From the NCBI GenBank assembly GCA_965263355.1, contig CBDHHL010000056.1, forward strand, positions 2,432,001-2,496,000: DNA of 64,000 nt, in the 5' to 3' direction. The notes below the pieces were generated by a model that searched no databases, was not told where the DNA came from, and was given only the letters and a program-made list of their open reading frames with translations. The position numbers were made by a program, and so were the translations under genes. The stretch is from Leptolyngbyaceae cyanobacterium. Its GTDB lineage: Bacteria; Cyanobacteriota; Cyanobacteriia; Phormidesmidales; Phormidesmidaceae. Of the stretch, positions 40,411-60,789 are shown piece by piece; the stretch's first letter is position 1, and every line of letters begins with the position of its first letter.

Positions 40411-42561
40411 TTACCCAGCCGTAGTAAAGTCTTCTGCGGTCAGAGTGCCATTAAAGTTGGTCAACTCAACTAAGACATCATTTCCGGTCGATAACCAGGT
40501 CTTATTATTTCTGCTGGCCTGCTCTAGGGCTCCAAAGCTCAGCCCGTCAGACAGTTCCAACATATCGGTGCCATGCTCAAAGTCTCTGATGATTAAAACA
40601 CCACTACCCTGGTTCAATACAAAGGTATCACTGCCGCCTTTACCAAAGGCCACATCAAAGTCTTTAGCCGTACCTAAATCAAGACGATCATCACCAGAAC
40701 CAGCGTGCACTTTGTCATTACCAGTGCCGGTGAGAATATCTTTATTGCCATCTGACACGCCATTGGAGGACTGAACATAGATTTTGTTGTTGCCATTGCC
40801 AGCATCAACGCTATTTTGGCCTTTACCAAGCTTAATAAAGTCATTTCCGTCTCCAGCAACGACATCGTAATCACTGGTTTTAGGACTATTAGGGCTAGTT
40901 TCGGCATCTACCGTAGGCCCTTCACTATCATTATCATTCTGATTTACATCATCAACAACATTGTTGTCAGCTTGTGGCTTATCAACATTCTTGGAGGTAT
41001 CAGCCCCTGAGGTCACAAAGTCGTTTGCCGTTAAGGTACCAGTAAAGTTTGTCAATTCAACTAAGGTATCACCCCCTGCTGACAGCCAGGTTTTACCATT
41101 TTTGGTAGTCTGGTCTATATCTGCAAATGTCAGGCCCTTCAGCTTTAGTTTATCGGTACCCTGGGCAAAATCTCTAATGCTTAAGAAGCCCTTACCCTGG
41201 TTTACAACAAATGTATCACTGCCGCCTTTACCAAAGGCCACGTCATAGTTTGTCGCTGTACCTAGATCCAGATAATCATCGCCAGATCCAGCGTGTGCTT
41301 TGTCATTACCTGTGCCTGCCAGAATAGTTTTAGGGCTATTGGAAGACTGGACATAGATCTTGTTATTGCCATTGCCAGCATCGACGCTATCCTGGCCTTT
41401 ACCCAATCTAATCACGTCATTCCCATTCCCAGAGATGACATCGTAGTCACCAGTGTTACCTTGATTAGAGTTATTACCACCACCGACATTAGAATTGGCG
41501 TTGTTATCACCATCTTGGGTGTTATCAACACTATCCTGACCGTTACCTGTGTCTAAACTGTCCTGGGGATCTGGTTTGGGTGTTTTAGTAGGCGCGTCCT
41601 GTAACCCTGCCAAAAGACCATTGACAGCTTGTTTAGGCCGATAGTTTTCATCAAAGGGCAGAGCATCGTCATATCCCTTGAAGAAATCAGGGATCCAGGA
41701 GTAACGATCGGTAACTCCCCAGATGGTGACTGAATCGCAATTACCTGCGTCTGCACAGGTCTCGACAATTGTCTGATAAATTTTTGCCTGGTTAGCTAGT
41801 TTTGCAGCCGTCGCAGGTTGTTTAACACGTACATCAGCCTCTGTAAACTCAACGTCTAAACCCAACTTGCCAAGACGTTTCATATTTTCTGCAACACTCT
41901 TGAAGTTACGAGGATCGTCTTCAGACATGTGCATTTGAAAGCCCACACCATGAATAGGTACACCTTTGGCTTTTAAGTCAGATACTAATTGATAGACTCT
42001 GTTAGATTTTTTGTTGACTTCCTCAGCTCTATAGTCGTTGTACAGTAATTTAGCGTTGGGATCGGCTTCGTGGGCCCACTTGAAGGCAAGTTCTATGTAT
42101 TCTGGACCAATCTTTTGTAGCCAAAATGAATTACGTAATTTGCCATCATCACCAACGGCTTCATTCACTACATCCCACACTTTGATTTGTCCCTTATAGC
42201 GACCCACCACGGTCTTGATGTGGGTTTCTAGAATATCTAGGAGTTCTTGACGACTCCAGTTGCCGTTCTCGAGCCATTGTGGATTAGAAATATGCCAAAC
42301 GAGCGCATGCCCCCTGAGATCCATATCGTTTTGATTAGCAAAACTCATTAAGGCATCCGAATCGCGAAAGTTAAACTTTCCCTTTTCAGGCTGCATAAAC
42401 CGGAACTTCATTTCGTATTCAGCGGTAATGCTGTTAAACTCTCTCGCCACCGTCTCTCGGTACTGTTGATCGTCGCGAATACGATTGATTTTGACCGCTG
42501 CACCGATGGTCATATTTTTCTTATCGGCTGCGGAACGCAATGTGCTGTCAGTATTATTCAT
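40411..42561 (-). CDS. GH10 endo-1,4-beta-xylanase with duplicated RTX-like C-terminal module (start ATG 42561 or 42624)
   Basis: EFNSITAEYEMK, RGHALVWH, WDVVNE (acid/base), LLYNDY, GVGFQMH, FTEADV (nucleophile), WGVTDRYSW; GxGND-type repeats. Confidence 0.92.
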   Translation of the reverse strand: MNNTDSTLRSAADKKNMTIGAAVKINRIRDDQQYRETVAREFNSITAEYEMKFRFMQPEKGKFNFRDSDALMSFANQNDMDLRGHALVWHISNPQWLENGNWSRQELLDILETHIKTVVGRYKGQIKVWDVVNEAVGDDGKLRNSFWLQKIGPEYIELAFKWAHEADPNAKLLYNDYRAEEVNKKSNRVYQLVSDLKAKGVPIHGVGFQMHMSEDDPRNFKSVAENMKRLGKLGLDVEFTEADVRVKQPATAAKLANQAKIYQTIVETCADAGNCDSVTIWGVTDRYSWIPDFFKGYDDALPFDENYRPKQAVNGLLAGLQDAPTKTPKPDPQDSLDTGNGQDSVDNTQDGDNNANSNVGGGNNSNQGNTGDYDVISGNGNDVIRLGKGQDSVDAGNGNNKIYVQSSNSPKTILAGTGNDKAHAGSGDDYLDLGTATNYDVAFGKGGSDTFVVNQGKGFLSIRDFAQGTDKLKLKGLTFADIDQTTKNGKTWLSAGGDTLVELTNFTGTLTANDFVTSGADTSKNVDKPQADNNVVDDVNQNDNDSEGPTVDAETSPNSPKTSDYDVVAGDGNDFIKLGKGQNSVDAGNGNNKIYVQSSNGVSDGNKDILTGTGNDKVHAGSGDDRLDLGTAKDFDVAFGKGGSDTFVLNQGSGVLIIRDFEHGTDMLELSDGLSFGALEQASRNNKTWLSTGNDVLVELTNFNGTLTAEDFTTAG

Positions 42562-43571
42562 AATGAAGTGAGTTATCTCTTTGATTCTGTTTTTAGCCAA
42601 GCGTTTGCTACGATCCCATGGCACCGTCCCATCGTGAAAGCCTCACAACAGAAGATACTCTTGTGTCAAATGCAACCTGTAGCAGGAGACTTTGTATAAG
42701 CGCATCGAGATTCTAGAGCCGCTTTTCAGTTGCTCTCAACCCCAGACGGATAAAAGAAGCGCATCATCAAAGGCCTCTTACATGCAGACAGGTAACAAAT
42801 TAGTTAAATTATGAAGATCGATATGTTGCCAAATATTGAGCGTTGTCTTTAAGTGCGCAAAGCATCTCTTGTGCTTTGCAAGATGATTGTTAGAACACAC
42901 TTCAAACAAGTTATCTCGAATGGGGCCTAATGGCAGCTGCTTAGAATGAAAAGATTATGAGCGTTTAATGAAGAAGCGCGTTTAATGGCGATTAAATTAC
43001 TTTTTAATGAAATCCGGAAAAAGTACCGAGATCTTTTGTGATAGAGATGATGTCTAGCAACACTCTAAAGAGCACATCAGTCATACGTAGATTCAATGAA
43101 GAATATAGCCTGCCGTGATAGCTGAACCTTATTAATTATAATGATTTCAAGATACTAGATGCTGATGAAAAATTTGTCGTAAAAAAACTTTCCTGTGATA
43201 TCTAGCACTGTTTTTTGAATAACAGAACACCTAATTCTGTGGCAAGCCTGTTTTTTAGAGTGAGAATATCAAATCACTGTTGCCTGACTAAGAGCCACTT
43301 TGCAAAGTGGCACATATTCGAGAGAGCGTTATCATTTATGTTGTGAAACTGTAAATCTTCTACCAAGTTAGTAGTGTTATAAAATCGACTATTTTCTCTT
43401 TTTAGACAAATAATTGGTCTCAGTTGACGATCTGAATCTGGGATTTTTTTGCGGATCTTGTTAAGATACATCCCATCACGAATGTATCTATCCTCACCAG
43501 TCCTTTCGCTCCGAGTCTCAAGGAGGCACTTACCCTGATATCTTGTAAGCAGATGTGTCTTCTGGTGCAGC

Positions 43572-45578: not shown

Positions 45579-46829
45579 TCAAGCGGCGGCACATCTATCC
45601 TTAGGTAAGTAGTTCACCCAGGGGGCATTTAAGGCGAGTGCCACATTCATATATTCAAACGACTGCACAAGCCAGTCAATCGAATCGACTGACGATTGCT
45701 CCCACATGTGAAACAAGATTCCAAAGCGATCTTCAAACCAGGAACGTACCGTACGCTTGAATAAAACGATCTTTAAAAGCACTGCCGTCAGTGCCTGGTG
45801 ACCCACTGTTTTGATTAAATGTTTAAATTGACCAACGTCAGGGCGCTCTAATGTATTACACACCAACATCTTTAACAACCGACTGCATATGTAGGTAATG
45901 GAAGCATCGGTAATGGGGGCTGTTTCTGCTCCCAAGCTCTCCACTAAGGCAGTTTTCACCGCACTACTAAACCGATTCGTCTTAAATCGTGGGTTAGCCT
46001 CTACAAATGGCTCCATAACATAGTCATGGAAATGGGCAAGAAAATCCTCCCTTTTCTGACGAGAACGGTAAAACTTATCCAACTCAGTTGCCTGCTTTAC
46101 GTAACTTCCATTTCTACCAGGGTGAAATGCCCAAATCGCATCCTTGAGATGCTCATCAGATAATCGTGTAGGATTCACTGGCATTAAGCCCTGCTGATAA
46201 TCATTCCAGTACTTATTAAGACGTTCGTTGAGATGCTGTGCCTGATGCCTTCGCTGTAGCTGAATACTTTTACGTTGATGCAACGGAACATCGCGGGTAA
46301 CGGCAGCTGACTCATAAATAAAGAAGTAATCTTTAAAACAACTGGCAAAGGATGAACAGTCTTCTTCCTGGGGGGTGTCCCAGAGCAAACGCATCTGGCG
46401 CTGTAGCGGTACATAAAGATTGTCATTGCTGACGTAGCCATCCATCGCATCTATCAGCTGCTTGACCCGCCGATCCCTTGGACGTTTCTCAGGAATCTCG
46501 TTGGCTCTCAAAATTAATTCCCGCAACTGGGCATGGCGGCCAGTATCCAGACGCCAAATGTTACCAATCGTGTAAAAGCAACGATTAATCACATAGGGCA
46601 AAATTTCATCAGCCTTAGGAGACTCCAAGATATGCAATAGTGCAGGGCGTACCGAGTTAGAATCCAACTCTGGTAGAGTAACATTAGCTTTGAAAAGCAG
46701 ACCATAAAATGCATCGATGGCTTGCTGAGCATCCTCTATCCTGGCAAGCTGCCGCACATAGCCATAAACTATACGCTCTGCTCGAGTAGCTGGTCGGTTA
46801 GCAAAAAATTCACCGTCGGTGGAGTACAT
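45579..46829 (-). CDS. Conserved-looking cyanobacterial hypothetical protein (416 aa)
   Basis: Long ORF, mostly helical; YVINRCFYTIGNIW and VLLKIVLFKRTVRSWFEDRFGILF motifs; no recognisable catalytic motif. Confidence 0.75.
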   Translation of the reverse strand: MYSTDGEFFANRPATRAERIVYGYVRQLARIEDAQQAIDAFYGLLFKANVTLPELDSNSVRPALLHILESPKADEILPYVINRCFYTIGNIWRLDTGRHAQLRELILRANEIPEKRPRDRRVKQLIDAMDGYVSNDNLYVPLQRQMRLLWDTPQEEDCSSFASCFKDYFFIYESAAVTRDVPLHQRKSIQLQRRHQAQHLNERLNKYWNDYQQGLMPVNPTRLSDEHLKDAIWAFHPGRNGSYVKQATELDKFYRSRQKREDFLAHFHDYVMEPFVEANPRFKTNRFSSAVKTALVESLGAETAPITDASITYICSRLLKMLVCNTLERPDVGQFKHLIKTVGHQALTAVLLKIVLFKRTVRSWFEDRFGILFHMWEQSSVDSIDWLVQSFEYMNVALALNAPWVNYLPKDRCAAA

Positions 46830-46901
46830 TGAACGTCAGGTCCCTGTTAAACCTATTCTGATGAGACTACGTATCTATATACTTAAGTGTTAGCGCAATT
46901 T

Positions 46902-46929
46902 ATACGAAAATTCTAGTGTTTTTTCGTAT
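46902..46929. promoter_or_regulatory. 9-10-9 inverted repeat upstream of the 416-aa gene
   Basis: ATACGAAAA-N10-TTTTCGTAT. Confidence 0.45.
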
Positions 46930-46973
46930 GTCTTGCTGCATTGTTCAGGGTTCGTAACATCTCCACGATTACT

Positions 46974-49715
46974 TCAGTCCACAACAATACCCTGAAGTCT
47001 TTGAACTGCATACAGTTCCTCGTTTGAAAAACCTTGTTTTGTATAAAACTTACAGTTCTGGTATTGATCTAGATCACTGACAGTTTTCCAAGTCTGCAAA
47101 ATCTCTTCGACCTGAAGGTCCCAAATGCTAACGGTAGATTTATTCTGGCATAGAAGCTGCTGACCGTCATTACTGATAAAAAATTGCTCTGGCAGCTCTG
47201 GCAACGTAATCAACGCTAGTAACGACATCATTTCATTCCAAACCCAAACCGTGTGATCTATGTCACACAGGGCTAGATATCTTCCATTGTTACTGAAGGT
47301 CGCCTGGTAAGGTTGTCGAAGATTAGTATTCAATTCTTTGACCTTAAAGCTGATTGAATCTTCTGCCAATATTGGGTCAGTGACTGTAAAGCACCGCATG
47401 ATGGCCTTATATAAGTGTTGATTGGACGCATCATCGGCTACAGTTTCAACTACATTTAGCTGATCCCCAAACCATTGAAACACTAAAAAATCTCCATAGG
47501 GGTTTAAAGGCAATGGAGCCTCAGCAATTGTGTAATCATTAGTCGATGTATTGTGGTACCAAATGAGTATCGAACTGTTGTTGTCATAGCCTGCCAAGAT
47601 GCTAGCGTCTGGATTAAAAGCCAAGTGTCTGACAATATCATTGGCCTCACACAGGGATTCACCGATTTCTTCGCCTAGCATTAAGTTCCAAAGCTGAATT
47701 TCTCGATTCCCCAGACCAATGGCCAGCAAATCATCCGTCAGGTCAACACTACAAATAGTGGCAATGCCAGATATATCGCTGTAGCATTGCTCTTTATGGG
47801 TCAGTGAATCCCAAATCACAATGCTTTGATCGATGAGAATCACGATTAACGTATTGCTATCAGTAACTACGATTTGTTGAATTGGGATTTCCAGCTCATC
47901 ACACCAGGCTAAAATAAATCGATTGTTAACCCACTGATAGACCTGTAAGAAACCCTGGGAGTCGCCAATGGCCATGGCGGTTTTATCGGGGTGTAGTGCG
48001 ATCGCACATGACTCATAGGTCCCCATCATCAAGACAGCCTCTCGAAATCGACATCCCTGAAAATCGAGTCCTTGCAATCTAGATACTCTCAGATCAGCAT
48101 GCCATAGGGTGAGGTTAGCCCAACTCACATCGGCGAGGGACAGCCCTAAGTAGGTCGCTAAATTAAATAGATTACCGGCTGCATAGCTACGGGAGGAGAC
48201 AGGTAATGTATGAAGCTGACTGATGAGGCGGCTAAATTTAGCGGCTAAATCCTCCGATAGAAACCGGTATTTAAGCGTGTTGGCAATCGGCACCAAAAGG
48301 TAGTTTTTAAGAGTTTCTTGCTGTTTGACAGAGACTGTGGGTAAAGATAATGGGTATATGTGAAACAGTGTTAGGGTTTCGTCAATTAGCTCCTTTAAAA
48401 ATATCTCTTTCAACTGTTGGAGTAAATAAAGGCCCAAATATGGCGGTGTGATTTGGCAGATCCCATGCGTTTCTGAAAAGTACTCTAAAAGATGCCGCCG
48501 ATGTAGCATATCCCAGGCTTGCACCAGCTGCGTATTCTTCAGGGTACTCACGGGTAACCAGGCCTGCACATCTAGCCAAGAAAGGGGACGCAACGCAAAT
48601 AGATAGAGTAATGCCTGCTCTGCATCCGATAGCTCATCTGTAAGCCGCTCCAGATGTCTATCAGACAGGAGGGGTAATGATGACAGATTGGCCGTAAACT
48701 GCTGAATTTGATTAGCATAAAATGATTTTAGAGTCTCAATACTCTTATGCAAAAGTGCAGGATTGCCGCCACACAGTTTGACCAGCTGTTTCCAATGAAT
48801 CTCATGTTGAGCAAGCGAATCCCTAAGATAGGGATATTCCTGTGGCAACAGAGCACTGGCCTCGTCAAATGAAAGCCCTTGCAGCTTTTCAGTGGGAATT
48901 CGCCGATCAATGTCAGTAGGCTGAATAGCGCTCACCCAAAGTAAACAACTTTGATGATCAAGCGTTGTAGCAATCTCTCCAAAAAAGGCTTTATAGTCAG
49001 GATTATCTATAAACTGTTCACCATGCTCAACGATGAGTAGATAGCGATTTTGATTCAGGGTTCTCAATACTTGCTGACGCATTTGAGAAACTGCACCAGG
49101 CATATCCTTATCAGAACCATTGAGAAAATCAATCAATCCCAGAGAAGATAAGGTTTGATACCATGTTTTCCAAGTTGGGATCTCATTGAGGGGATGATAG
49201 ATGATCTCAGTAAAATGACCGTTCAGCACTAGAGGCAAATTATCTAATAAGTAGCTTTTGCCAATGCCCTTAGCCCCCGTTAAAACGATTGCTTGACAAC
49301 CTGATTGAAGGGCACTAACCAAACGTAATAATGGTGTTTCTTGGGGATTACTATCAAGCTCGTCCAACCTACCTGGGTTAAGGTCTTGGGAAATCGACTC
49401 AGGTGGACGATCTTGTTGTGTCCCATTTATCAATACATCTTGTTCTTTTTTCCAAAGACGTTCTACGGTGCTTAGAAAATTAGTCTTAGTGATATTTTCC
49501 CCTGGCCATACCTGTTTAAGGAATTTCCAAAGCTGATACCCATAGACAGCACGCACTGTATTTTGGCTGTAGCCCATCTGAACTGCCATCTCCTTATAAG
49601 AAAGGCCTTCATAGCTCCAACGGATAATGCCTTTCTCAATCTCAGTCAAATGGCGATTAGCATAATCAAAAACACAACGGTCAACGTAGTCTAAAACATC
49701 CTCTAGCTCCAACAT
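46974..49715 (-). CDS. HTH + NB-ARC/STAND-like NTPase + degenerate WD40 protein
   Basis: N-terminal HLTEIEKGII..SYEGLSYKEMA...GYS..TV helix-turn-helix; Walker A GAKGIGKS; CGGNPALL (GxP); YAAGNLFNL plus ADLR pentapeptide linker; WD-like repeats. Confidence 0.85.
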   Translation of the reverse strand: MLELEDVLDYVDRCVFDYANRHLTEIEKGIIRWSYEGLSYKEMAVQMGYSQNTVRAVYGYQLWKFLKQVWPGENITKTNFLSTVERLWKKEQDVLINGTQQDRPPESISQDLNPGRLDELDSNPQETPLLRLVSALQSGCQAIVLTGAKGIGKSYLLDNLPLVLNGHFTEIIYHPLNEIPTWKTWYQTLSSLGLIDFLNGSDKDMPGAVSQMRQQVLRTLNQNRYLLIVEHGEQFIDNPDYKAFFGEIATTLDHQSCLLWVSAIQPTDIDRRIPTEKLQGLSFDEASALLPQEYPYLRDSLAQHEIHWKQLVKLCGGNPALLHKSIETLKSFYANQIQQFTANLSSLPLLSDRHLERLTDELSDAEQALLYLFALRPLSWLDVQAWLPVSTLKNTQLVQAWDMLHRRHLLEYFSETHGICQITPPYLGLYLLQQLKEIFLKELIDETLTLFHIYPLSLPTVSVKQQETLKNYLLVPIANTLKYRFLSEDLAAKFSRLISQLHTLPVSSRSYAAGNLFNLATYLGLSLADVSWANLTLWHADLRVSRLQGLDFQGCRFREAVLMMGTYESCAIALHPDKTAMAIGDSQGFLQVYQWVNNRFILAWCDELEIPIQQIVVTDSNTLIVILIDQSIVIWDSLTHKEQCYSDISGIATICSVDLTDDLLAIGLGNREIQLWNLMLGEEIGESLCEANDIVRHLAFNPDASILAGYDNNSSILIWYHNTSTNDYTIAEAPLPLNPYGDFLVFQWFGDQLNVVETVADDASNQHLYKAIMRCFTVTDPILAEDSISFKVKELNTNLRQPYQATFSNNGRYLALCDIDHTVWVWNEMMSLLALITLPELPEQFFISNDGQQLLCQNKSTVSIWDLQVEEILQTWKTVSDLDQYQNCKFYTKQGFSNEELYAVQRLQGIVVD

Positions 49716-49777
49716 GGACTCCTCAATTTAGATAGACACACACAACCCTTCTCTATTAAGGAGTCTAACGTAATTTA

Positions 49778-49902
49778 TATGACTTTTTAAATGCCTATTA
49801 TGACTTTTTAATATGACATTATGACTTTTTACGAAAGCAACTGGGTTGATTGCCGTAGTACGCCATAAAAAGTCATAATGATGAGAATGACTTTTTATGA
49901 CT
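49778..49902. repeat. Array of TATGACTTTTTA boxes (3 direct at 21-bp period, 1 inverted, 1 further direct, partial copies)
   Basis: Copies at 49778, 49799 and 49820; reverse complement at 49866-49877; ATGACTTTTTA at 49887; partial TATGAC(T) at 49812 and 49896. Confidence 0.9.
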
Positions 49903-50038
49903 AGTTATCTTCAGAGGTCCTAAAATACCTGACAACTCTCAATACTTTAGAGGTTTCGGCTTAGACTTTTCCTTTGGCAAGATAAGGCTACAAGGCATCA
50001 AATGATGTAGGTGCCGACATTACGCGAGGGATTGCACC

Positions 50039-50221
50039 ATGCCACTAGAAATGTTGATCGGTCTAAGTTTAAGCGGATTTTTGATTGTACTATTTAACCC
50101 ATCGCCGCAACCTAAACCCAGCAAACCAACTAGAAAAACGATTGCAACTGTAGTACTGTCTGGCTCCACCGGAGAAATTGAAATTATCAAGGACTCCCAA
50201 GGGGCTGGCGCTAAGTCTTAG
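50039..50221 (+). CDS. Small single-TM protein (60 aa), divergent from the STAND gene
   Basis: GAGGGG RBS-like site upstream of ATG; N-terminal hydrophobic helix followed by a Pro/Lys-rich segment. Confidence 0.55.
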   Translation: MPLEMLIGLSLSGFLIVLFNPSPQPKPSKPTRKTIATVVLSGSTGEIEIIKDSQGAGAKS

Positions 50222-51466: not shown

Positions 51467-54400
51467 ATGCTTTTATCCAGGCTTAGCTCATCAGTATGCC
51501 CAGTAGTTCTAGCGGCTTTAGGGCTATTGCCCCTGCCAGCCCAAGCGCAAATTATTCCCGATCAGACGCTTGGCGCAGAAGCCTCTAGCGTAGTTAATGA
51601 TCAACAGATTCGCGGCGACAATGCTGAGCTGATTGAAGACGGTGCTACCCGTGGCGACAATTTATTTCATAGCTTTAGTGAGTTCAATGTCAACTCTGGC
51701 CAGCGGGTGTATTTTTTTAATCCGGTTGGCATTGAGTCTATTTTGAGTCGGGTAACGGGGGAGAATCCGTCGGCAATCAATGGCACGTTGGGGGTAGATG
51801 GCCCTGCCAGTTTGTTTTTGATCAACCCGAATGGTCTGGTATTTGGTGAGGCTGCCGTATTAGATGTGACGGGTTCTTTTTATGGCACAACTGCAGAGGC
51901 GGTTACCATCGGCAATGGGGTATTTAGTGCAGTGGACCCAGGCCAGAGTCAATTGTTAGCGGTGAGTCCTAGCATATCGTTTTGGAATTATTTGACAGAT
52001 ACGTCAGGGGAGGTAGTCAATCGAGGGGCCTTAGCCATTGGGGGCGACCTGATTTTGGCTGGGAATCGATTAGATTTGCAAGGTCAGGTAGCCGCTGCAG
52101 GTGACGTATCGTTGTTAGCAACTGATACAGTACAGATTCGCGATACGGCTGAAATTCCTTTTATCAGTTTTGCCGGAGACAACCTGTTGGTGCAGGGCAA
52201 TCAGCAGGTTGATATTGTGGCGCTGAGTCATCCGGAGAGTGGATTGTTCTCAAATGGCAATATGGTACTGCGCTCAGCCAGTCAGGTGGGTGGAGATGCC
52301 CATTATTTAAGCGGTGGAGACTTTCGGATAGAGCAGTTGGATGGAAGTGATGGGGAGTTATTTAGTCCCATTGATCCAATTATTCGAGCCCTGGGAGATG
52401 TCACAATTGGGACCTACGTGGGCTCATCATTACATATTTTAGCTGGTGGCGCTGTTTCTATCGGCACTGCCTTAATTACTGCAGCAGAGGGCACAGACAT
52501 TGGCATCGACTTTCTCCAAGAAACGATCACATTGTCAGATGGCACCATTGTTGAGATTGATGGAAATGCTCAGCCTACGCTAGATGTTCGCGCTGGAGTA
52601 CGACCAGATGCCCTGGGTACTCCTCCATTAGACCTCTTAACTGGATTTGATAACTTGATAGATTTTTTCTCCAATGATTCTGTTGCCGAGGAAACACCGA
52701 CTAGTGCCAATATTACAATTGGTGATGCATCACTGGGGGTGGCAAATGGTGTGGTGCTGCTAACAAATCAATATGAACCTAATCTAGAGTTACCTGGCGA
52801 AAATATAGTTGTTACAGGTAATGGCGCAATTGGTTTTGGTATTAATGCAACGAATTTTGGCGGTGTTGGTGGCGCTGTTTACTTAGATGCCCGTAACAAT
52901 GTTGAGGTTCTCAATAGCGCCATTGCTGCAACAGCGTTAGAAGATATTAAAGATGTTGTGATTGTAGCTAGTGAAACAGTCACTTTTGATGGTCTGGATG
53001 GTACCCGTCTTACGGGAGCTTTTAGTGAACTTGGCCCTAACGGAACGGGTGACGGCGGTAATGTACGTATTACTGCGCGCAATCTTGAGGTACTTGGGGG
53101 GGCACAGTTAGGTGCTAATACCTTTGGTGAGGGAAATGCTGGCAGCGTAATTTTAGATATCGCAGAAACTGCTCGGTTTGAAGGCAGTAATCCTATCGAT
53201 GGGGTGAACAGTGGTGCCTTTAGTCGCGTAGCCTCTGATGGGATTGGTACCGGTGGTGATGTGCGTATTACTGCTCGCAATCTTGAGGTGCTTGGGGGTG
53301 CTGAGTTGTCTACCAGTTCGTTGGGTGATGGCTCCGCAGGTAGCGTCATTCTAGATATCGCAGAAACTGCTCGGTTTGAAGGTGTTGATCCAATAGACGA
53401 GTTGGCCAGTGGAGTATTTAGTAGCATTGAAGCTACTGGCACTGGTACCGGTGGTGATGTGCGTATCATGGCACGTAATCTTGAGGTGCTTGACGGTGCC
53501 CAGCTAAATGCCGGTACCTTTGGTGAAGGCGATGCTGGCAATGTCATTCTTGTCATAGAAGAAACCGCTAAATTTGAGGGGCGTAACCCCCTAGACGGCA
53601 GCCCTAATGGAGCCTTTAGTAGTGTTGGCCTTACTGGTATTGGTACCGGTGGTGATGTACGTGTAACTGCTCGCAATCTTGAGGTGCTTGAGGGTGCACG
53701 CCTGATTGCCGGTAGCTTTGGTATGGGCAATGCCGGCAATGTGACTTTAGTGATAGAAGAAGCTGCTCGATTTGCGGGAAGTAGTCCTATCAACGGAGTT
53801 TCTAGTGGAGCCTTTAGTAATGTTGAGCCTACTGGCATTGGTACCGGTGGTGATGTGCGTGTGACTGCCCGTAGTCTTCAGGTACTTGAAGGTGCCCAGA
53901 TCGGTGCTAATACTTTTGGTGTAGGCAATGCGGGCAATGTCATTCTGAATATTGAAGAAACAGCTCGCTTGGATGGTGTAAATGCAGTAACTGATGTTGT
54001 TAGTGCGGTAGGAAGTAGCGTCCAGTCTGGCGGTGTAGGCCGTGGGGGTAATATTGAAGTAACCGCTAGAGATTTAGAGGTCACCAATGGAGCACAGTTG
54101 AATGCTGCTACTTTTGGTACAGGCGATGCGGGTAATGTCATTTTGGTGATAGAAGAAACTGCCAGGATTGATGGAACGGATGCAGCCACTGAAAGTTTTA
54201 GTGCAGTAGGGAGTGGTGTTCAGCCCGGGGGGATAGGCCGTGGCGGTAATGTTGAAGTAACCGCTAGAAATTTAGAATTAGCGAATGGAGCACAAATCAG
54301 TTCAGAAACCTTTGGTGAAGGTAATGCGGGCAATGTGATTCTTGACATTGAAGAAACTGCTCGCTTGGATGGGAGAAATTCTGTAACAGGACTTCTCCCT

Positions 54401-55633
54401 ACTGGTATACGCAGCAGTGTGACTGATGCAGGTAGAGGTCGCGGGGGAGATATTGAAATAAACACTCGAAATTTAGAAGTACTCAATGGCGCGCAAATCA
54501 GTGTGGAAACTTTTGGTGAAGGTGATGCAGGCAGTATTCGTCTCAATGTAGAAGAGACGGCTCGTTTTGATGGGGAGAATCTAGAGGGATTCAGTTCAGA
54601 AGTAGCGAGCAGTGTCAGTGTAGGAGGTATGGGTCGAGGTGGTGATATTGAAGTAACGGCTAGAAATCTAGATGTAACTAACGGTGCAAGAATCAATGCT
54701 TCAACTTTGAGCGAAGGTGATGCAGGTAATATTCGTCTTAACGTAGAAGAAACTATTCGTTTTGATGGGCTAGACTCTACAACCGGTTCAATTAATACTA
54801 CTTTTGCGGGCAGTTTTGTAGCACCAGGCGCTACGGGTAATGGTGGTGATATTGAAGTGACGGCCACCAATCTTCAACTTGCCAATGGCTCAGGATTTTT
54901 GACAGTGAGTGATGGTGATGGAAATGCAGGTAATGTAATACTTGCTATTCGCGATCGCATACAATTCCAAGATAGTTCCATTGCTACCAATTCAGAATTC
55001 AATGCGGGCGGACAAGTGCAAATTGAAGCAGGCAACATTTTTCTCTTTGGTGATAGCGATATCCAAACCTTTGTTAACTCTGGTGCCAATAATGGTGGCA
55101 ACATTACCATCAACGCCAATGCCCTTGTTGCCTTCGACGATAGTGATATTCTCGCCTTTGCGGCTGACGGTCGCGGCGGCGATGTAGATCTCAGTCAAAC
55201 TGCCTTCTTTGGCCAAGACTTTTCCTTTGCCCCCCCTGGCACCGATCCTCGTACTCTAGATGCTAATGACCGGGTCGATATTAACGCTACAGGTCGTCTA
55301 GCCTCCGGCACAATCTCCCTGGCCGATGTTAGCTTTATCCAAGATAGCTTGACCGAATTACCCGACAATCTGATCAATCCTGAAGCACTGGTCGCCAATA
55401 GCTGTATTGCTCGAAGGCGTAATACAGACAGTAATTTGATGATCACAGGCAGTGATGGTCTGCCTGTACAGCCCAATCGTCTGCAATCGTCCTATGAATT
55501 AGGTGAAATTCGCTCGTTTACAGAACCTAGCTCGGAAGAGGCTCATAGCCCAATCACTGAACCACACAGTACCTATCGATTAGCAGATGGACGACTCGTA
55601 CTAGGCCGTGAATGTGAGGCTGATCATGAGTAA
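51467..55633 (+). CDS. Filamentous haemagglutinin-family (TpsA-like) exoprotein 1
   Basis: Signal peptide ending AQAQ; TPS domain NLFHSFSEFNV...LFLINPNG; about 10 repeats of about 66 aa; C-terminal NSCIARR...GRLVLGREC. Confidence 0.93.
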   Translation: MLLSRLSSSVCPVVLAALGLLPLPAQAQIIPDQTLGAEASSVVNDQQIRGDNAELIEDGATRGDNLFHSFSEFNVNSGQRVYFFNPVGIESILSRVTGENPSAINGTLGVDGPASLFLINPNGLVFGEAAVLDVTGSFYGTTAEAVTIGNGVFSAVDPGQSQLLAVSPSISFWNYLTDTSGEVVNRGALAIGGDLILAGNRLDLQGQVAAAGDVSLLATDTVQIRDTAEIPFISFAGDNLLVQGNQQVDIVALSHPESGLFSNGNMVLRSASQVGGDAHYLSGGDFRIEQLDGSDGELFSPIDPIIRALGDVTIGTYVGSSLHILAGGAVSIGTALITAAEGTDIGIDFLQETITLSDGTIVEIDGNAQPTLDVRAGVRPDALGTPPLDLLTGFDNLIDFFSNDSVAEETPTSANITIGDASLGVANGVVLLTNQYEPNLELPGENIVVTGNGAIGFGINATNFGGVGGAVYLDARNNVEVLNSAIAATALEDIKDVVIVASETVTFDGLDGTRLTGAFSELGPNGTGDGGNVRITARNLEVLGGAQLGANTFGEGNAGSVILDIAETARFEGSNPIDGVNSGAFSRVASDGIGTGGDVRITARNLEVLGGAELSTSSLGDGSAGSVILDIAETARFEGVDPIDELASGVFSSIEATGTGTGGDVRIMARNLEVLDGAQLNAGTFGEGDAGNVILVIEETAKFEGRNPLDGSPNGAFSSVGLTGIGTGGDVRVTARNLEVLEGARLIAGSFGMGNAGNVTLVIEEAARFAGSSPINGVSSGAFSNVEPTGIGTGGDVRVTARSLQVLEGAQIGANTFGVGNAGNVILNIEETARLDGVNAVTDVVSAVGSSVQSGGVGRGGNIEVTARDLEVTNGAQLNAATFGTGDAGNVILVIEETARIDGTDAATESFSAVGSGVQPGGIGRGGNVEVTARNLELANGAQISSETFGEGNAGNVILDIEETARLDGRNSVTGLLPTGIRSSVTDAGRGRGGDIEINTRNLEVLNGAQISVETFGEGDAGSIRLNVEETARFDGENLEGFSSEVASSVSVGGMGRGGDIEVTARNLDVTNGARINASTLSEGDAGNIRLNVEETIRFDGLDSTTGSINTTFAGSFVAPGATGNGGDIEVTATNLQLANGSGFLTVSDGDGNAGNVILAIRDRIQFQDSSIATNSEFNAGGQVQIEAGNIFLFGDSDIQTFVNSGANNGGNITINANALVAFDDSDILAFAADGRGGDVDLSQTAFFGQDFSFAPPGTDPRTLDANDRVDINATGRLASGTISLADVSFIQDSLTELPDNLINPEALVANSCIARRRNTDSNLMITGSDGLPVQPNRLQSSYELGEIRSFTEPSSEEAHSPITEPHSTYRLADGRLVLGRECEADHE

Positions 55634-55821
55634 TGTCCATTGCTAAACTATACCCACTAGTATGACCATATGCATTTTTGATTAACAGTATGTAGCTTTA
55701 GGGCAACGTACGTCTATTCAATAACTGATGCTACAGGGCTGCTTAGAATTTATAGTTCCAAAATCCTACAGTGAACGTTTGATAATTAGAAATGTCTAGC
55801 ATTAGCATTTGGCATAGCACC

Positions 55822-58800
55822 ATGCTTTTATCCAGGCTCAGCTCACAGATATGCACGATACTTTTAGTGCCTATAGGGCTTCTTCCCCTGTCAGCCCAAG
55901 CACAAATTATTCCAGATCAAACGCTGGGCTCAGAAACCTCTAATATAGTTAACGACCAGCTAATTCGAGGAGATCGTGCCGACTTAATTGAAGACGGTGC
56001 TACCCGTGGCGACAATTTATTTCATAGCTTTAGTGAGTTCAATGTCAACTCTGGCCAGCGGGTGTATTTTTTTAATCCGGTTGGCATTGAGTCTATTTTG
56101 AGTCGGGTAACGGGGGAGAATCCGTCGGCAATCAATGGCACGTTGGGGGTAGATGGCCCTGCCAGTTTGTTTTTGATCAACCCGAATGGTCTGGTATTTG
56201 GTGAGGCTGCCGTATTAGATGTGACGGGTTCTTTTTATGGCACAACTGCAGAGGCGGTTACCATCGGCAATGGGGTATTTAGTGCAGTGGACCCAGGCCA
56301 GAGTCAATTGTTAGCGGTGAGTCCTAGCATATCGTTTTGGAATTATTTGACAGATACGTCAGGGGAGGTAGTCAATCGAGGGGCCTTAGCCATTGGGGGC
56401 GACCTGATTTTGGCTGGGAATCGATTAGATTTGCAAGGTCAGGTAGCCGCTGCAGGTGACGTATCGTTGTTAGCAACTGATACAGTACAGATTCGCGATA
56501 CGGCTGAAGTTCCTTTTATCGGCTTTGCCGGGGGCGATCTGTTGGTGCAGGGCAATCAGCAGGTTGATATTGTGGCGCTGAGTCATCCGGAGAGTGGATT
56601 GTTCTCAAATGGCAATATGGTACTGCGCTCAGCCAGTCAGGTGGGTGGAGATGCCCATTATTTAAGCGGTGGAGACTTTCGGATAGAGCAGTTGGATGGA
56701 AGTAATGGGGAGTTATTTAGTCCCATTGATCCAATTATTCGAGCCCTGGGAGATGTGACGATTGGAGCATACATCGGTGGCTCACTACATATTATTGCGG
56801 GAGGCTCTGTCAGGATTGATGCAGTCATTATTAATGCAGTGGATCCAGGTAGCCTTAGCATTGATTTTTTACAAGAGAATATTGAGTTGTCAGATGGCAC
56901 AGTTGTGTCTATTGATGGAGGAACTCAGCCGACATTAGATGTGAGAGCAGGCGTTTTACCAGAAAGCATAGGTAATCCTCCACTGGAAATGGTAACGGGC
57001 TTGAATCCCTTGACAGATAGTCTTTTTATGTTGGATTTAACCGATAGTCCATCTAATGCCAATATTGAGATTGGTGATGTTTTTATAGATGCCTCTGATG
57101 GTCTAGTTCTTCTAACCAATCAGTATTCTCCAAACACTTTGCTAAACGGCGATATCTTAATTGAAACTAGGCAACTAGATTTTGGAGGAGTCGTTGCAGG
57201 TGATCTCTCAACCGTTGGTGGCCAGATCATTTTTGATTCTCGAAATAACATCAATGTTGTTGATAGTTTAATTGCAACATCTTCAGTGAATTTAGACGGT
57301 GGTGGCATTACTCTGTTAGCTGAAAATGATATTGCTCTGGAGAGTCCTCAAAATAAAATAACAGGGTTATTAAGTACTATCCCCCCTGATGTAACTAGCA
57401 TGGGGGGTAGCATACGGATTAATGCACAAAATTTAGAACTGCGAGATGGTTCCGCCATCTCCACAGAGATATTTGGCAATGGCCCAGCAGGGAATGTCAT
57501 TCTCAATATTGAAGGAGCCGCCAGTTTTGATGGGGTGAATTTAGTAACTGGGGCTATTGGAGGTATTTCCAGTGTCATCAGGCCAGGTAGTTCAGGTCTT
57601 GGAGGCAAGATTGAATTAACCGCTAGCAATTTGGAAGTAACGAATGGGGCACAACTAAATGCATCAACCTTTGGTGAAGGTAATGCAGGGAATGTGATTC
57701 TGAATATTAGTGAAACCGCACGCTTTGATGGGGTGGATGCAGTCACTGGCATATTCAGTGGTGCAGGAAGCAGTGTTTTGCTTGGCGGTGTCGGTCGTGG
57801 CGGTAATGTTGAAGTAAACGCTAGAAATTTGGAAGTGGCTAATGGTGCACAGCTGATTGCATCAACCTTTAACGAGGGCGATGCTGGTAGTGTGCTCCTC
57901 AATATTGAAGAAACGGCACGCTTTAGTGGAGTGGATGCAGTAACTGGAGCTGTTAGTGGTGCAGGGAGCGGTGTAGAGGCTGACGGCATTGGTCGTGGCG
58001 GTAATGTTGAAGTAAACGCTAGAGATTTACAAGTAACTGGTGGGGCATTGTTGTTTACATCAACTGCTGGCGAGGGTGATTCAGGCAACGTGATTCTTAA
58101 TATTGAAGAGACTGCTCGTTTTGAGGGGGTGTCTTCAGTTACTGGAGTAGGAGGCGGAGTAAGAAGTAGTGTAGAGCCTAGTGGTATCGGTCGTGGAGGT
58201 AATATTGAAGTAACCGCTGGCAATTTGGATGTAACCAATGGAGCACAGTTGCTTGCATCAACCTTTGGTCAGGGAAACGCGGGCAATGTTGTACTTGATA
58301 TTGAAGAAACAGCAAACTTTGATGGGATTAACCCTTTAACAGGTCTTAGCCCTACTGGTGTTGGGAGTAACATTGAGCTTGGCGGTATCGGACGTGGAGG
58401 CAATATTGAAGTAACCGCTGGCAATCTGAACGTAACCAATGGAGCACAGCTGCTTGCATCAACCTTTGGTCAGGGAAATGCGGGCAATGTTGTACTTGAT
58501 ATTAGAGAAACGGCTCGCTTTGATGGTGTAGATGCAGTAAACGGAATTGTGAGTGGTACAGGAAGTAGCGTTGAAGCTGAAGGGGTAGGTCGTGGCGGTG
58601 ATATTGAATTAACTGCTAGAAATCTAGAAGTAAGCAATGGCGCACAACTCCTGGCATCGACTTTTGGAGAAGGCGATGCAGGTAATGTAATTCTGAATAT
58701 TGAGGAGATTTCTCGTTTTGATGGGGTATCTCCAGTGACTGGTATTGGCAGTGGTGCAAGGAGTAGTGTTGAGATTGGAGGGGTAGGTCGTGGCGGTAAT

Positions 58801-60789
58801 GTTGAAGTGACGACCAGGAATCTAGAAGTAAGCAATGGCGCACAGCTCCTGGCATCAACTTTTGGAGAAGGCGATGCAGGAATTGTGATGCTAGATATTG
58901 AAGAAACAGCACGCTTTGATGGGGTCAACCCTGCAACAGGGATTAATCCTACCAGTGCTGCCAGTAGTGTTGAACAGGGAGGGGTAGGTCGTGGCGGTAA
59001 TGTTGAATTAGCCGCTAGAAATCTAGAAGTAACCAACGGAGCACAGATCTCTGCATCAACCTTGGGTGAGGGAGATGCAGGTAATGTAATTCTTGATATT
59101 GAAGAAACAGCTCGCTTTGATGGGGTCAACCCTGTAACAGGGATTAATCCTGCTGGTGCTGCAAGCACTGTTGAACAGGGAGGGGTAGGTCGTGGCGGTA
59201 ATGTTAAAGTGACGGCTAGAAATCTAGAAGTAACCAACGGAGCACAGCTCAGTTCAGAAACATCTGGAGAGGGTGATGCGGGCAATGTGATTCTTGAGAT
59301 TGAAGAAACGGCTCATTTTGATGGAGTAAATCCGATAACAGGATTTTCTCCTAGTGCTGCAAGAAGCAGTGTTGCATCTGGAAGTGTAGGTCATGGCGGT
59401 AATATTGAAGTGGCGGCCAGGAATCTGAATGTAACCAATGGGGCTCTATTGCTAGCATCAACATTTGGAGAGGGTGATGCGGGTAATGTGATTCTTGAGA
59501 TTGAAAGGATGGCCCGCGTTGATGGAGTGAATCTTATTACAGGCCTTAATGTTAGTACGGTGGGCAGTAGTGTTGAGACCGATGGGGTAGGGCGTGGCGG
59601 CGATGTTGAGCTAACAGCCAGGAATCTGGAGGTGACCAATGGGGCAATGCTGAGTGCAGCAACCTTTGGGGAGGGAGATGCAGGAAATATTATTCTTGAT
59701 ATTGAAGAAACAGCTCGCTTTGATGGAGTGAGTCCGATCACAGGTTCTAATTCTAGTGCTGTGGGCAGTAGTGTTGAGATAGGTGGAATAGGACGTGGCG
59801 GCAATGTTGAACTAACAGCCAGAAATCTGGAAGTGACCAATGGGGCACTGCTGACTGCGGCAACCTTTGGAGAGGGGGATGCAGGAAATATTATTCTTGA
59901 TGTTGAAGAAACAGCTCGCTTTGATGGCATGAATCCGATCACAGGGGCTGTGAGTCCAACTTCTGCAACCAGCCTAGTTTTCCTAGGTGCTACAGGAAAT
60001 GGTGGTGATATTGAAGTAACGGCTACTAATCTTGAACTTACTAATGGGGGAATATTAGCAACATCGAGTTTTGGTGAGGGGGATGCGGGCGATATAGTGT
60101 TGATTATTCGCGATCGCATTCAACTCCAAGATGGCATTATTGCAACTAATGCAGAGTTTAATGCTGGTGGACAAATTCAAATTGAAGCAGGCAACATTTT
60201 TCTGTTTGGTGATGGCGACATCCAAACCTTTGTTAACTCTGGTGCCAATAATGGTGGCAACATTACCATCAACGCCAATGCCCTTGTTGCCTTCGACGAT
60301 AGTGATATTCTCGCCTTTGCGGCTGACGGTCGCGGCGGCGATGTAGATCTCAGTCAAACTGCCTTCTTTGGCCAAGACTTTTCCTTTGCTCCCCCTGGCA
60401 CTGACCCCCGTACCCTAGAAGGCAATGACCGGGTCGATATTAACGCTACAGGTCGCCTAGCCTCCGGAACAATCACCCTGGCCGATGTTAGTTTTATCCA
60501 AGACAGCTTGACCGAACTACCCGACAATCTGGTCAATCCTGAAGCACTGGTCGCCAATAGTTGTATTGCTCGTAGGCGTGATACGGATAGCAATTTGGTC
60601 ATCACAGGCAGTGATGGTCTGCCTGTACAGCCCAATCGCCTGCAAGCGTCCTATGAGCTAGGTGAAATTCGCTCGTTTACAGAACCTAGCTCGGCAGAGG
60701 CTCATAGCCCAATCACTGAACCACACAGTACCTATCGATTAGCGGATGGTCGGCTTGTACTAGGGCGTGAGTGTGAGCCTGACCATTAA
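55822..60789 (+). CDS. Filamentous haemagglutinin-family (TpsA-like) exoprotein 2
   Basis: Same architecture with about 14 repeats; ATG 55822 chosen because the upstream DNA and MLLSRLSS match paralog 1. Confidence 0.93.
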   Translation: MLLSRLSSQICTILLVPIGLLPLSAQAQIIPDQTLGSETSNIVNDQLIRGDRADLIEDGATRGDNLFHSFSEFNVNSGQRVYFFNPVGIESILSRVTGENPSAINGTLGVDGPASLFLINPNGLVFGEAAVLDVTGSFYGTTAEAVTIGNGVFSAVDPGQSQLLAVSPSISFWNYLTDTSGEVVNRGALAIGGDLILAGNRLDLQGQVAAAGDVSLLATDTVQIRDTAEVPFIGFAGGDLLVQGNQQVDIVALSHPESGLFSNGNMVLRSASQVGGDAHYLSGGDFRIEQLDGSNGELFSPIDPIIRALGDVTIGAYIGGSLHIIAGGSVRIDAVIINAVDPGSLSIDFLQENIELSDGTVVSIDGGTQPTLDVRAGVLPESIGNPPLEMVTGLNPLTDSLFMLDLTDSPSNANIEIGDVFIDASDGLVLLTNQYSPNTLLNGDILIETRQLDFGGVVAGDLSTVGGQIIFDSRNNINVVDSLIATSSVNLDGGGITLLAENDIALESPQNKITGLLSTIPPDVTSMGGSIRINAQNLELRDGSAISTEIFGNGPAGNVILNIEGAASFDGVNLVTGAIGGISSVIRPGSSGLGGKIELTASNLEVTNGAQLNASTFGEGNAGNVILNISETARFDGVDAVTGIFSGAGSSVLLGGVGRGGNVEVNARNLEVANGAQLIASTFNEGDAGSVLLNIEETARFSGVDAVTGAVSGAGSGVEADGIGRGGNVEVNARDLQVTGGALLFTSTAGEGDSGNVILNIEETARFEGVSSVTGVGGGVRSSVEPSGIGRGGNIEVTAGNLDVTNGAQLLASTFGQGNAGNVVLDIEETANFDGINPLTGLSPTGVGSNIELGGIGRGGNIEVTAGNLNVTNGAQLLASTFGQGNAGNVVLDIRETARFDGVDAVNGIVSGTGSSVEAEGVGRGGDIELTARNLEVSNGAQLLASTFGEGDAGNVILNIEEISRFDGVSPVTGIGSGARSSVEIGGVGRGGNVEVTTRNLEVSNGAQLLASTFGEGDAGIVMLDIEETARFDGVNPATGINPTSAASSVEQGGVGRGGNVELAARNLEVTNGAQISASTLGEGDAGNVILDIEETARFDGVNPVTGINPAGAASTVEQGGVGRGGNVKVTARNLEVTNGAQLSSETSGEGDAGNVILEIEETAHFDGVNPITGFSPSAARSSVASGSVGHGGNIEVAARNLNVTNGALLLASTFGEGDAGNVILEIERMARVDGVNLITGLNVSTVGSSVETDGVGRGGDVELTARNLEVTNGAMLSAATFGEGDAGNIILDIEETARFDGVSPITGSNSSAVGSSVEIGGIGRGGNVELTARNLEVTNGALLTAATFGEGDAGNIILDVEETARFDGMNPITGAVSPTSATSLVFLGATGNGGDIEVTATNLELTNGGILATSSFGEGDAGDIVLIIRDRIQLQDGIIATNAEFNAGGQIQIEAGNIFLFGDGDIQTFVNSGANNGGNITINANALVAFDDSDILAFAADGRGGDVDLSQTAFFGQDFSFAPPGTDPRTLEGNDRVDINATGRLASGTITLADVSFIQDSLTELPDNLVNPEALVANSCIARRRDTDSNLVITGSDGLPVQPNRLQASYELGEIRSFTEPSSAEAHSPITEPHSTYRLADGRLVLGRECEPDH

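Follow-up and report, generated by a model that had tools for sequence, protein, structure and literature searches.

A conserved cyanobacterial module of an HTH-STAND protein, an Sll1247-family paralog and phased boxes: a possible autoregulated switch

In a stretch of 64,000 nucleotides from a Leptolyngbyaceae cyanobacterium (contig CBDHHL010000056.1, positions 2,432,001 to 2,496,000; hereafter the window, to whose first letter all coordinates refer) we find a module whose stable core consists of a gene for a 913-residue STAND protein with an N-terminal helix-turn-helix (HTH) domain, the gene for a 416-residue protein, called U here, and an array of short boxes upstream of the STAND gene. The module is real, conserved and apparently undescribed, and it would add a protein partner to the STAND transcriptional regulators. 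Our preferred reading, to which we give a probability of about 0.47, is that STAND acts as an autoregulated transcription switch whose sensory subunit, U, is a separate, detachable protein and a co-encoded inhibitor.

Results

Locus

The STAND open reading frame (ORF; 46974–49715) and that of U (45579–46829) both lie on the minus strand, and a 60-residue ORF lies on the plus strand (50039–50221). The 144-bp gap between STAND and U (46830–46973, minus strand) holds a segment conserved in relatives, possibly a second promoter for U. Pfam matches identify GSDH on one side of the module and EamA on the other, the unrelated metabolic flanks described in an earlier reading of this DNA made from its letters (the sequence-only reading). 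Contigs from a second sample (run X3) span 30 of 30 bins, and their 99%-alike pieces have no differing letter listed; the locus is therefore not an assembly artifact. The nearest named relatives are Adonisia, Leptothoe and Leptolyngbya PCC 7375, and the searches for paralogs and targets were done in relatives' genomes, which stand in for the window organism.

Phased boxes at the STAND promoter

Five exact copies of ATGACTTTTTA are found upstream of the STAND gene, starting at 49779, 49800 and 49821 (plus strand, 21-nt spacing), 49866 (minus strand) and 49887 (plus strand). Over 12 letters, four of them are the same and the fifth differs by one mismatch, which bears out the five near-identical 12-bp boxes already noticed. 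Read on the STAND strand, box 1 is TAAAAAGTCAT (49779–49789), box 2 (49800–49810) lies 21 nt upstream of it, and box 3 (49821–49831) 21 nt upstream of box 2; box 4 (49866–49876) reads TAAAAAGTCAT on the plus strand and forms an inverted pair with box 5 (49887–49897, minus strand), an exact copy. Allowing at most one mismatch, the window contains eight matches against 1.58 expected, a number reached by 0 of 100 shuffles. The boxes are kept in all four aligned relatives and the spacers drift. The boxes contain A-tracts in helical phase. The inverted pair is present at the locus in four of five genomes, plus one other site. A dispersed repeat, or a regulon marked by exact box pairs, was rejected, since the direct pair is confined to this locus in five of five genomes; a search with the short palindrome gave nine matches off the locus against five for a control pattern and showed no regulon. 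Short tandemly repeated repetitive sequences, which are heptamers, were rejected as well, as the boxes are spaced and not tandem.

On the STAND strand the boxes precede a TAGACT (49767–49762) that is conserved in relatives and that we infer to be the −10 element of the STAND promoter. A scan for sigma-70 promoters returned none on the STAND strand and three weak sites on the plus strand (1.4 expected). The core of box 1 ends 11 nt before the putative −10, and between the two lies a degenerate box, in register and adjoining the −10 (49769–49778), which is part of a palindrome in relatives and is broken here. The operator role that the sequence-only reading had proposed for the boxes is thus strengthened in that they are conserved, specific to the locus and placed at what appears to be the STAND gene's own promoter. 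As a separate observation, an 81-bp contig of run X3 (depth 25000) matches 35 letters of 49797–49831 with three differences and a gap; a high-copy repeat that matches by chance is the probable explanation.

Similar arrays are found across the HTH family, which occurs in 36 of 121 genomes of the phylum and, at up to 27 copies per genome, in 56 of 61 genomes of one order. A phased-repeat score of at least 4 is reached by 9 of 25 upstream regions of STAND–U pairs, by 9 of 69 other HTH genes and by 1 of 486 controls, and off-phase repeats show no excess; among held-out HTH genes (n = 81) six reach it in phase and one off phase. At least three cores before the −10 are present in 11/25, 12/69 and 14/86 of the three gene sets, against 3/517 controls. 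These cores end 1–2, 11–12, 21–22 and 31–32 nt before the −10, and core ends fall at 0–2 nt (modulo 10) before it in 32/35, 31/40 and 32/43 cases (controls, 1/9), a register that the core list does not impose. The cores themselves differ between lineages, and two STAND–U paralogs of one genome (L001 and L045) have different boxes. Under a rule noted beforehand, in which the helix motif H-x-[RK]-D goes with TCGG in the box, at least three copies were present in 5 of 9 unseen genes versus at least two in 2 of 72 others (p = 2.7e-5, uncorrected for kinship); because related loci are not independent, the p values are overstated. From these comparisons it is very probable that the HTH reads the boxes at its own promoter.

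Two loci of the family may be mentioned here. The second STAND–U module (L045:2709–5060) of the genome that also contains L001 is placed opposite a pair of ECF-like sigma70-r4 genes and an NfeD gene; a transposase follows. At L176, an HTH-NTPase gene has a differing array upstream (GCATAC cores in both orientations) and is an outlier of the recognition code.

The STAND protein

Pfam matches on the 913-residue protein comprise a sigma70_r4/GerE-like HTH (22–56), an AAA/NACHT-like domain (128–253), a pentapeptide segment (536–562) and WD40 repeats (566–873), all but one scoring under the curated cut-offs. The AF2 model (pLDDT 85) has one WD40 propeller (residues ~570–870; 47106–48008, minus strand), and domains and model together confirm the HTH, P-loop NTPase and WD40 architecture given in the sequence-only reading. 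The top Foldseek match in the PDB is Apaf-1 (E = 1.3e-21, TM-score 0.28), Dark is also among the best, and a match to NB-ARC was obtained for the L045 paralog. As modeled, STAND is an NB-ARC-type, Apaf-1-like NTPase in which the nucleotide-binding domain (NBD), helical domain 1 and winged-helix domain are followed by a repeat sensor.

The Walker A motif GAKGIGKS (residues 147–154; 49254–49277, minus strand) and the GxP motif GGNP (316–319) are intact, and G147, G152, K153 and P319 are invariant. NTPases of this type canonically have a Walker B aspartate and a sensor-1 arginine. Walker B reads LLIVEHGE here, with Glu for Asp, a change seen in 11 of the 25 distinct loci where a call could be made. 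The window copy has lost the sensor-1 Arg (SCLLWVSA), which L051, L056 and others keep; L051 and L056, longer relatives with two propellers, keep the Walker B Asp too. The window NTPase probably binds nucleotide and hydrolyzes it poorly, as a member degenerate by descent whose catalysis is doubtful.

The HTH (residues ~3–92; 49440–49709, minus strand) is NarL/LuxR/sigma4-like and belongs to the expanded cyanobacterial family: a profile of 23 HTH domains weakly matches structures of NarL, DesR, DevR and sigma factors (E 0.007–0.1). The protein also carries a precomputed PF26355, which we take to be a VMAP-associated HTH. In the available part of a survey of sigma70-r4 proteins, NB-ARC, WD40 and AAA_35 are counted as accessory domains, and operators do not appear there (PMC11119718). 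The top match of the HTH profile is a 145-residue chain labeled "Lysozyme" (PDB 5i8l_A; E = 1.4e-9, two stretches), possibly a solved family member or a contaminant.

U is a member of the Sll1247 family

Scans of U against Pfam, NCBIfam and PADLOC gave nothing above noise. It carries, however, precomputed PF27130/PF27138, its profile matches a protein identical to Sll1247 over residues 44–444 (E = 6.3e-60), and the conserved motifs of the family (N-R-x-x-Y..N.W, NP and W..E..N..A) are present. By sequence, U is a diverged, STAND-linked paralog of the cyanobacterial signature protein Sll1247 and no orphan; its earlier description as a gene 144 bp downstream on the same strand stands, whereas that of a protein with no recognizable motif does not. 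Identity between U and the core copies is about 18–26%. The profile search returned 389 representatives. By genome, the family was detected in at least 87 of 301 of the phylum, where up to 6 candidates each were scored, and in 121 of 172 of the order. The model of U is all-helical (pLDDT 87.7), and the structural search suggested by the sequence-only reading gave no clear match: none in Foldseek at E ≤ 0.001, none at Z ≥ 8 when the whole chain was compared (best Z 7.2, rmsd 4.3, 99 residues aligned), and none usable in the ESM Atlas for U or Sll1247.

A quick tree with midpoint root was made from 113 members, a sample that favored relatives of the query and left out L110 (a duplicate of L004). 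Of these genes, 33 face away from murF, 29 lie directly after an HTH-STAND-WD40 gene, seven come after a cpcG-like linker gene, six are fused behind AAA_35 NTPases and 38 have other contexts. STAND linkage requires six changes on the tree, at least four of them forced by starred branches; 23 STAND-linked copies form one long-branched group, and STAND–U pairs occur in several clades with changing flanks. Given these changes, and the separate clade formed by the AAA_35–U fusions (SH-aLRT 100), coupling of the U family to STAND NTPases has happened more than once. U domains are also fused behind TIR and TRADD-like-N (P0056) and with pentapeptide repeats.

The murF-linked ortholog is identical to Sll1247, which the available text of PMC2823733 lists as a clade B cyanobacterial signature protein, and a SyCrp1 site is placed upstream of its gene in that of PMC3159480. 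The literature passages on Sll1247 do not give its function. A CRP-like site (at least 9 of 10 positions) stands upstream of 12 of 71 copies that are murF-linked or of other context, of 0 of 29 that are STAND-linked and of 5 of 620 controls. The idea of U as a toxin is disfavored, since core copies are widespread and no catalytic pattern stands out (only N82 is invariant in 85 rows).

Several other members deserve mention. The paralogs behind the cpcG-like rod-core linker gene (L050, L119–L121, L125, L144 and L149; seven loci) hint at a phycobilisome link, and a very divergent subfamily on a long branch (L047:8646–10028 and L064:11907–14045) has one member with C-terminal pentapeptide repeats. 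DUF2949 genes lie upstream of two STAND–U operons (L051:1826–2116 and L056:12695–12985), both preceded by CRP-like sites seen by eye, and another lies near an AAA_35–U fusion (L106:2373–2579). U-family domains also occur within the large conflict-type proteins P0145, P0102 and P0174, of which the first two have no Pfam match; we take their N-terminal parts to resemble vWA/MoxR systems, and the C-terminal part of P0174 to be CHAT-like.

U is predicted to dock on the propeller

Prediction of a complex between STAND residues 335–913 and U residues 1–412 gave a score of 0.71 (runs 0.70–0.72), against 0.00 for the best of three controls, so that the modeling of STAND with the 416-residue protein proposed by the sequence-only reading supports a complex. 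The runs share at least 80% of contacts, with partner pLDDT of at least 85. Of solved pairs 116 of 157 reach the mark used for the score, as do 2 of 215 mismatched ones; these counts apply only roughly here, the present prediction having used our own alignments. The predicted contacts involve propeller loops 689–693, 712–715, 733–743 and 788–803 of STAND and patches 301–316, 359–364, 182–187 and 403–412 of U. By the strand order of the model the propeller contacts are d-a and b-c loops, the face on which propellers usually bind their ligands. Core copies conserve the U patch too, though with another sequence, and among STAND-linked copies it is reshaped from one clade to the next. Binding of U to the top face of the propeller is likely on this model. 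The 416-residue protein had been proposed as an effector; because it is modeled on the WD40 sensor, it is more likely to be the sensor's ligand or a regulator (an anti-activator).

The divergent small protein

The 60-residue ORF is real, and its synonymous to non-synonymous codon changes (13:12 and 13:13 against two relatives) are consistent with coding selection. The single transmembrane (TM) segment claimed for it corresponds to one N-terminal hydrophobic stretch (residues 1–19, mean Kyte–Doolittle value 1.99), which could be an anchor or a signal peptide. Linkage of the three genes in other genomes was a check named in the sequence-only reading; it holds for STAND and U, and includes the peptide only in part, as the latter is restricted to the Leptothoe-like group (11 of 172 genomes of the order; 9 of 25 distinct STAND–U loci with the HTH). 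In relatives it usually heads a divergent operon of peptide, NfeD and two-TM genes, of which the latter two have been lost from the window, where it stands alone. NfeD genes also face away from STAND in the distant, peptide-less loci L045, L123 and L130. Control of the peptide by the boxes is plausible, and weaker than that of the STAND promoter because most boxes point toward the latter. In one genome (G338; L344:1–231, minus strand) the first 27 STAND codons run in frame into U, with boxes and peptide operon intact and no orthologous STAND found in the genome; this fusion is a natural deletion or an assembly chimera at a contig end. In another (G001; L350:1078–1683, minus strand) a second peptide copy forms the N-terminus of a 201-residue membrane protein; the 3.2-kb locus has neither boxes nor a STAND gene.

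Farther out in the window, tandem, partly near-identical genes (1388 and 1665 residues) at 51467–60789 are presumably filamentous-hemagglutinin-like. A 737-residue protein at 40411–42624, with duplicated C-terminal calcium-binding-like repeats and also found beside the module in L002, is one that we assume to be xylanase-like.

Discussion

We propose that the HTH occupies the AAAAAGTCAT boxes, which lie on one helix face across the −35/spacer region of the promoter of the STAND gene itself. Because single boxes are short, stable occupancy would need oligomerization, which, to judge from the family, may be driven by the NB-ARC domain as in MalT and AfsR. Since the register to the −10 is fixed and a −35 is lacking, activation of its own promoter by STAND is favored over repression; activation seems somewhat better than an even bet, and repression would be a credible second choice. 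Seated on the top face of the propeller, U would most likely hold STAND off, like a co-encoded anti-activator, and a signal that binds, modifies or removes U would free the switch. The output would be the STAND–U operon itself; in the Leptothoe-like group the chances that the divergent peptide/NfeD/two-TM operon is a further output appear evenly balanced. The response would be local, of the envelope or developmental, with no genome-wide regulon.

Several observations weigh against this proposal. A ligand on an Apaf-1-type propeller classically activates, which runs counter to the inhibitory direction, and a box whose end is 1 nt from the −10 could just as well keep RNA polymerase out. All three gene sets had been seen before the core list was drawn up, and most genes with the HTH have no detectable array (56 of 69 score below 3). 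The covariation of repeats and HTH put forward as a check in the sequence-only reading held for one rule in held-out genes; the other four of five rules gained no support (there were no genes for B, C failed in its single gene, D was borderline at p = 0.055 and E gave p = 0.15), and a global test found no relation between the similarity of boxes and that of helices (partial rho about 0; its permutation p values are unusable, the null being biased). The predicted interface residues are no more conserved than the rest of either protein, the complex prediction covered STAND residues 335–913, which lie beyond the HTH and NBD, and several genomes have HTH-STAND-WD40 paralogs and a single U match.

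Unlikely, although the strongest of the alternatives, is the same circuit with U as a ligand that activates, in the way of cytochrome c and Apaf-1: binding of U would open STAND, and the amount or state of U would set a bistable or feed-forward switch. The docking predicted on the usual ligand face and the best fold match of STAND, Apaf-1, speak for it, and the conserved segment in the STAND–U gap could be U's own promoter. However, if an autoregulated factor were encoded together with its own activating ligand, the circuit would be on constitutively without some further gate, and U is C-terminal in the AAA_35 fusions, a position that is usually autoinhibitory in STANDs.

A broader idea, that of a bacterial NLR guard with transcriptional output, is also improbable as matters stand. 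Sll1247 would have been duplicated repeatedly and a copy wired to STANDs, as a separate subunit on the WD40 sensor or as an integrated domain, so that whatever perturbs Sll1247 would flip a dedicated promoter; the receptors would be a large NLR-like family of transcription factors, up to 27 per genome, with a readable helix-to-box code. More doubtful is an anti-phage role, with U as a decoy of core Sll1247 targeted by an invader and STAND sensing the damage and inducing membrane proteins. U-family domains do recur in conflict-type architectures (TIR with TRADD-like-N, AAA_35, pentapeptide), the STAND-linked copies sit on long branches and are unlike core copies at the predicted interface, and the closest Apaf-1 homologs among STANDs are cyanobacterial according to the available text of PMC13581612. 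Yet the defense role considered in the sequence-only reading has little support from context: among 22 flanking proteins a single one clearly belongs to defense (type I restriction, L140), none of the PADLOC models fits the three genes (best E 0.008), effectors of nuclease, TIR or protease type are absent, and the propeller is eroded, not hypervariable, in a module kept across the Leptothoe-like group. The least probable of these readings is a plain autorepressor, or boxes that are read by another factor or bend DNA, with U merely a co-regulated neighbor: the overlap of the boxes with the spacer up to the −10, the phasing of their A-tracts, the null result for interface conservation and the near deletion of STAND at L344, where U and boxes are kept, would suit it, but GC-core arrays are almost absent from control promoters (1/486), the cores vary by lineage with one rule tracking the helix, the complex score is far above the controls, and U has been joined to STAND NTPases more than once.

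If the switch with U as inhibitor is the true reading, a STAND factor gated by a co-encoded propeller ligand would link MalT and AfsR to the eukaryotic guard-type NLRs. Through the module, the function of Sll1247, a non-pico cyanobacterial signature protein without a matched fold, becomes approachable for the first time, and a large, unstudied, NLR-like cyanobacterial family found in nearly all genomes of one order (56/61) gains a candidate DNA target. The predicted interface, the boxes and the −10 make the idea directly testable, and paralogs with different boxes could serve as orthogonal switches. We found no description of the STAND–Sll1247 pairing or of the operator arrays in the literature covered, which did not extend to most subscription papers or to the supplements of Kaur et al. 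(2020, 2021) and PMC13581612, where the clade may be listed, and no paper on PF27130 or DUF2949.

Comparison with known systems

Like AfsR, a large SARP (SARP-NOD-TPR), the module has a STAND transcription factor whose DNA-binding domain is N-terminal, and AfsR has a small-protein target, afsS, as STAND may have in the peptide. At afsS, AfsR binds phased direct repeats 11 or 22 bp apart, the 3' repeat lying 8 bp from the −10 (PMC10936776, available part). The repeats here share the fixed register over the −35/spacer, at 1, 11, 21 or 31 nt rather than 8 bp. In contrast to AfsR, the HTH is NarL/sigma4-like and not OmpR-type plus BTAD (neither of which had a Pfam match on STAND among 25 of the 28 families listed), the sensor is WD40 and not TPR, the cores end some 1 and 11 nt before the −10 and recur every 10 nt, the array is on the regulator's own promoter, and a protein partner is encoded next door.

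MalT is likewise a STAND factor with a LuxR-type HTH, and it uses multiple boxes, in both orientations, between divergent promoters. In MalT and the LALs, however, the HTH is C-terminal and here it is N-terminal, and the sensor of MalT is TPR-like and binds a sugar, against WD40 here. MalT is restrained by the inhibitory proteins MalY, MalK and Aes (PMC10427625, available passages); MalY acts on the NBD, whereas U is modeled on the propeller and has no known fold.

With the multicellular cyanobacterial conflict systems of vWA-MoxR/VMAP and TRADD-N type, the module has in common a pool of domains (STAND NTPases, HTH, pentapeptide, TIR and TRADD-N) (Kaur et al., 2020, 2021; PMC7159879, PMC8195603). 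The available passages of these papers, whose supplements lay outside coverage, contain neither the Sll1247 family nor operator arrays, and no MoxR, vWA or VMAP gene was found among the window neighbors or the 20 flanking proteins scanned. Unlike Avs and bNACHT systems, the module has no toxic effector domain and no defense-island context, as the absence of a PADLOC fit and the single defense gene among 22 flanking genes indicate. U is a member of the Sll1247 family and differs from it in being linked to STAND and in that no CRP-like site precedes such copies (0/29). With Apaf-1, STAND shares NB-ARC, helical domains and WD40, and a protein ligand on the propeller, there cytochrome c and here, by prediction, U; it differs in having an HTH instead of a CARD, a single propeller, a TM-score of 0.28 and a presumed transcriptional output. 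The module lacks the domains that define the SARPs, MalT/LAL and Avs/bNACHT; it would work like AfsR and MalT and is built like Apaf-1.

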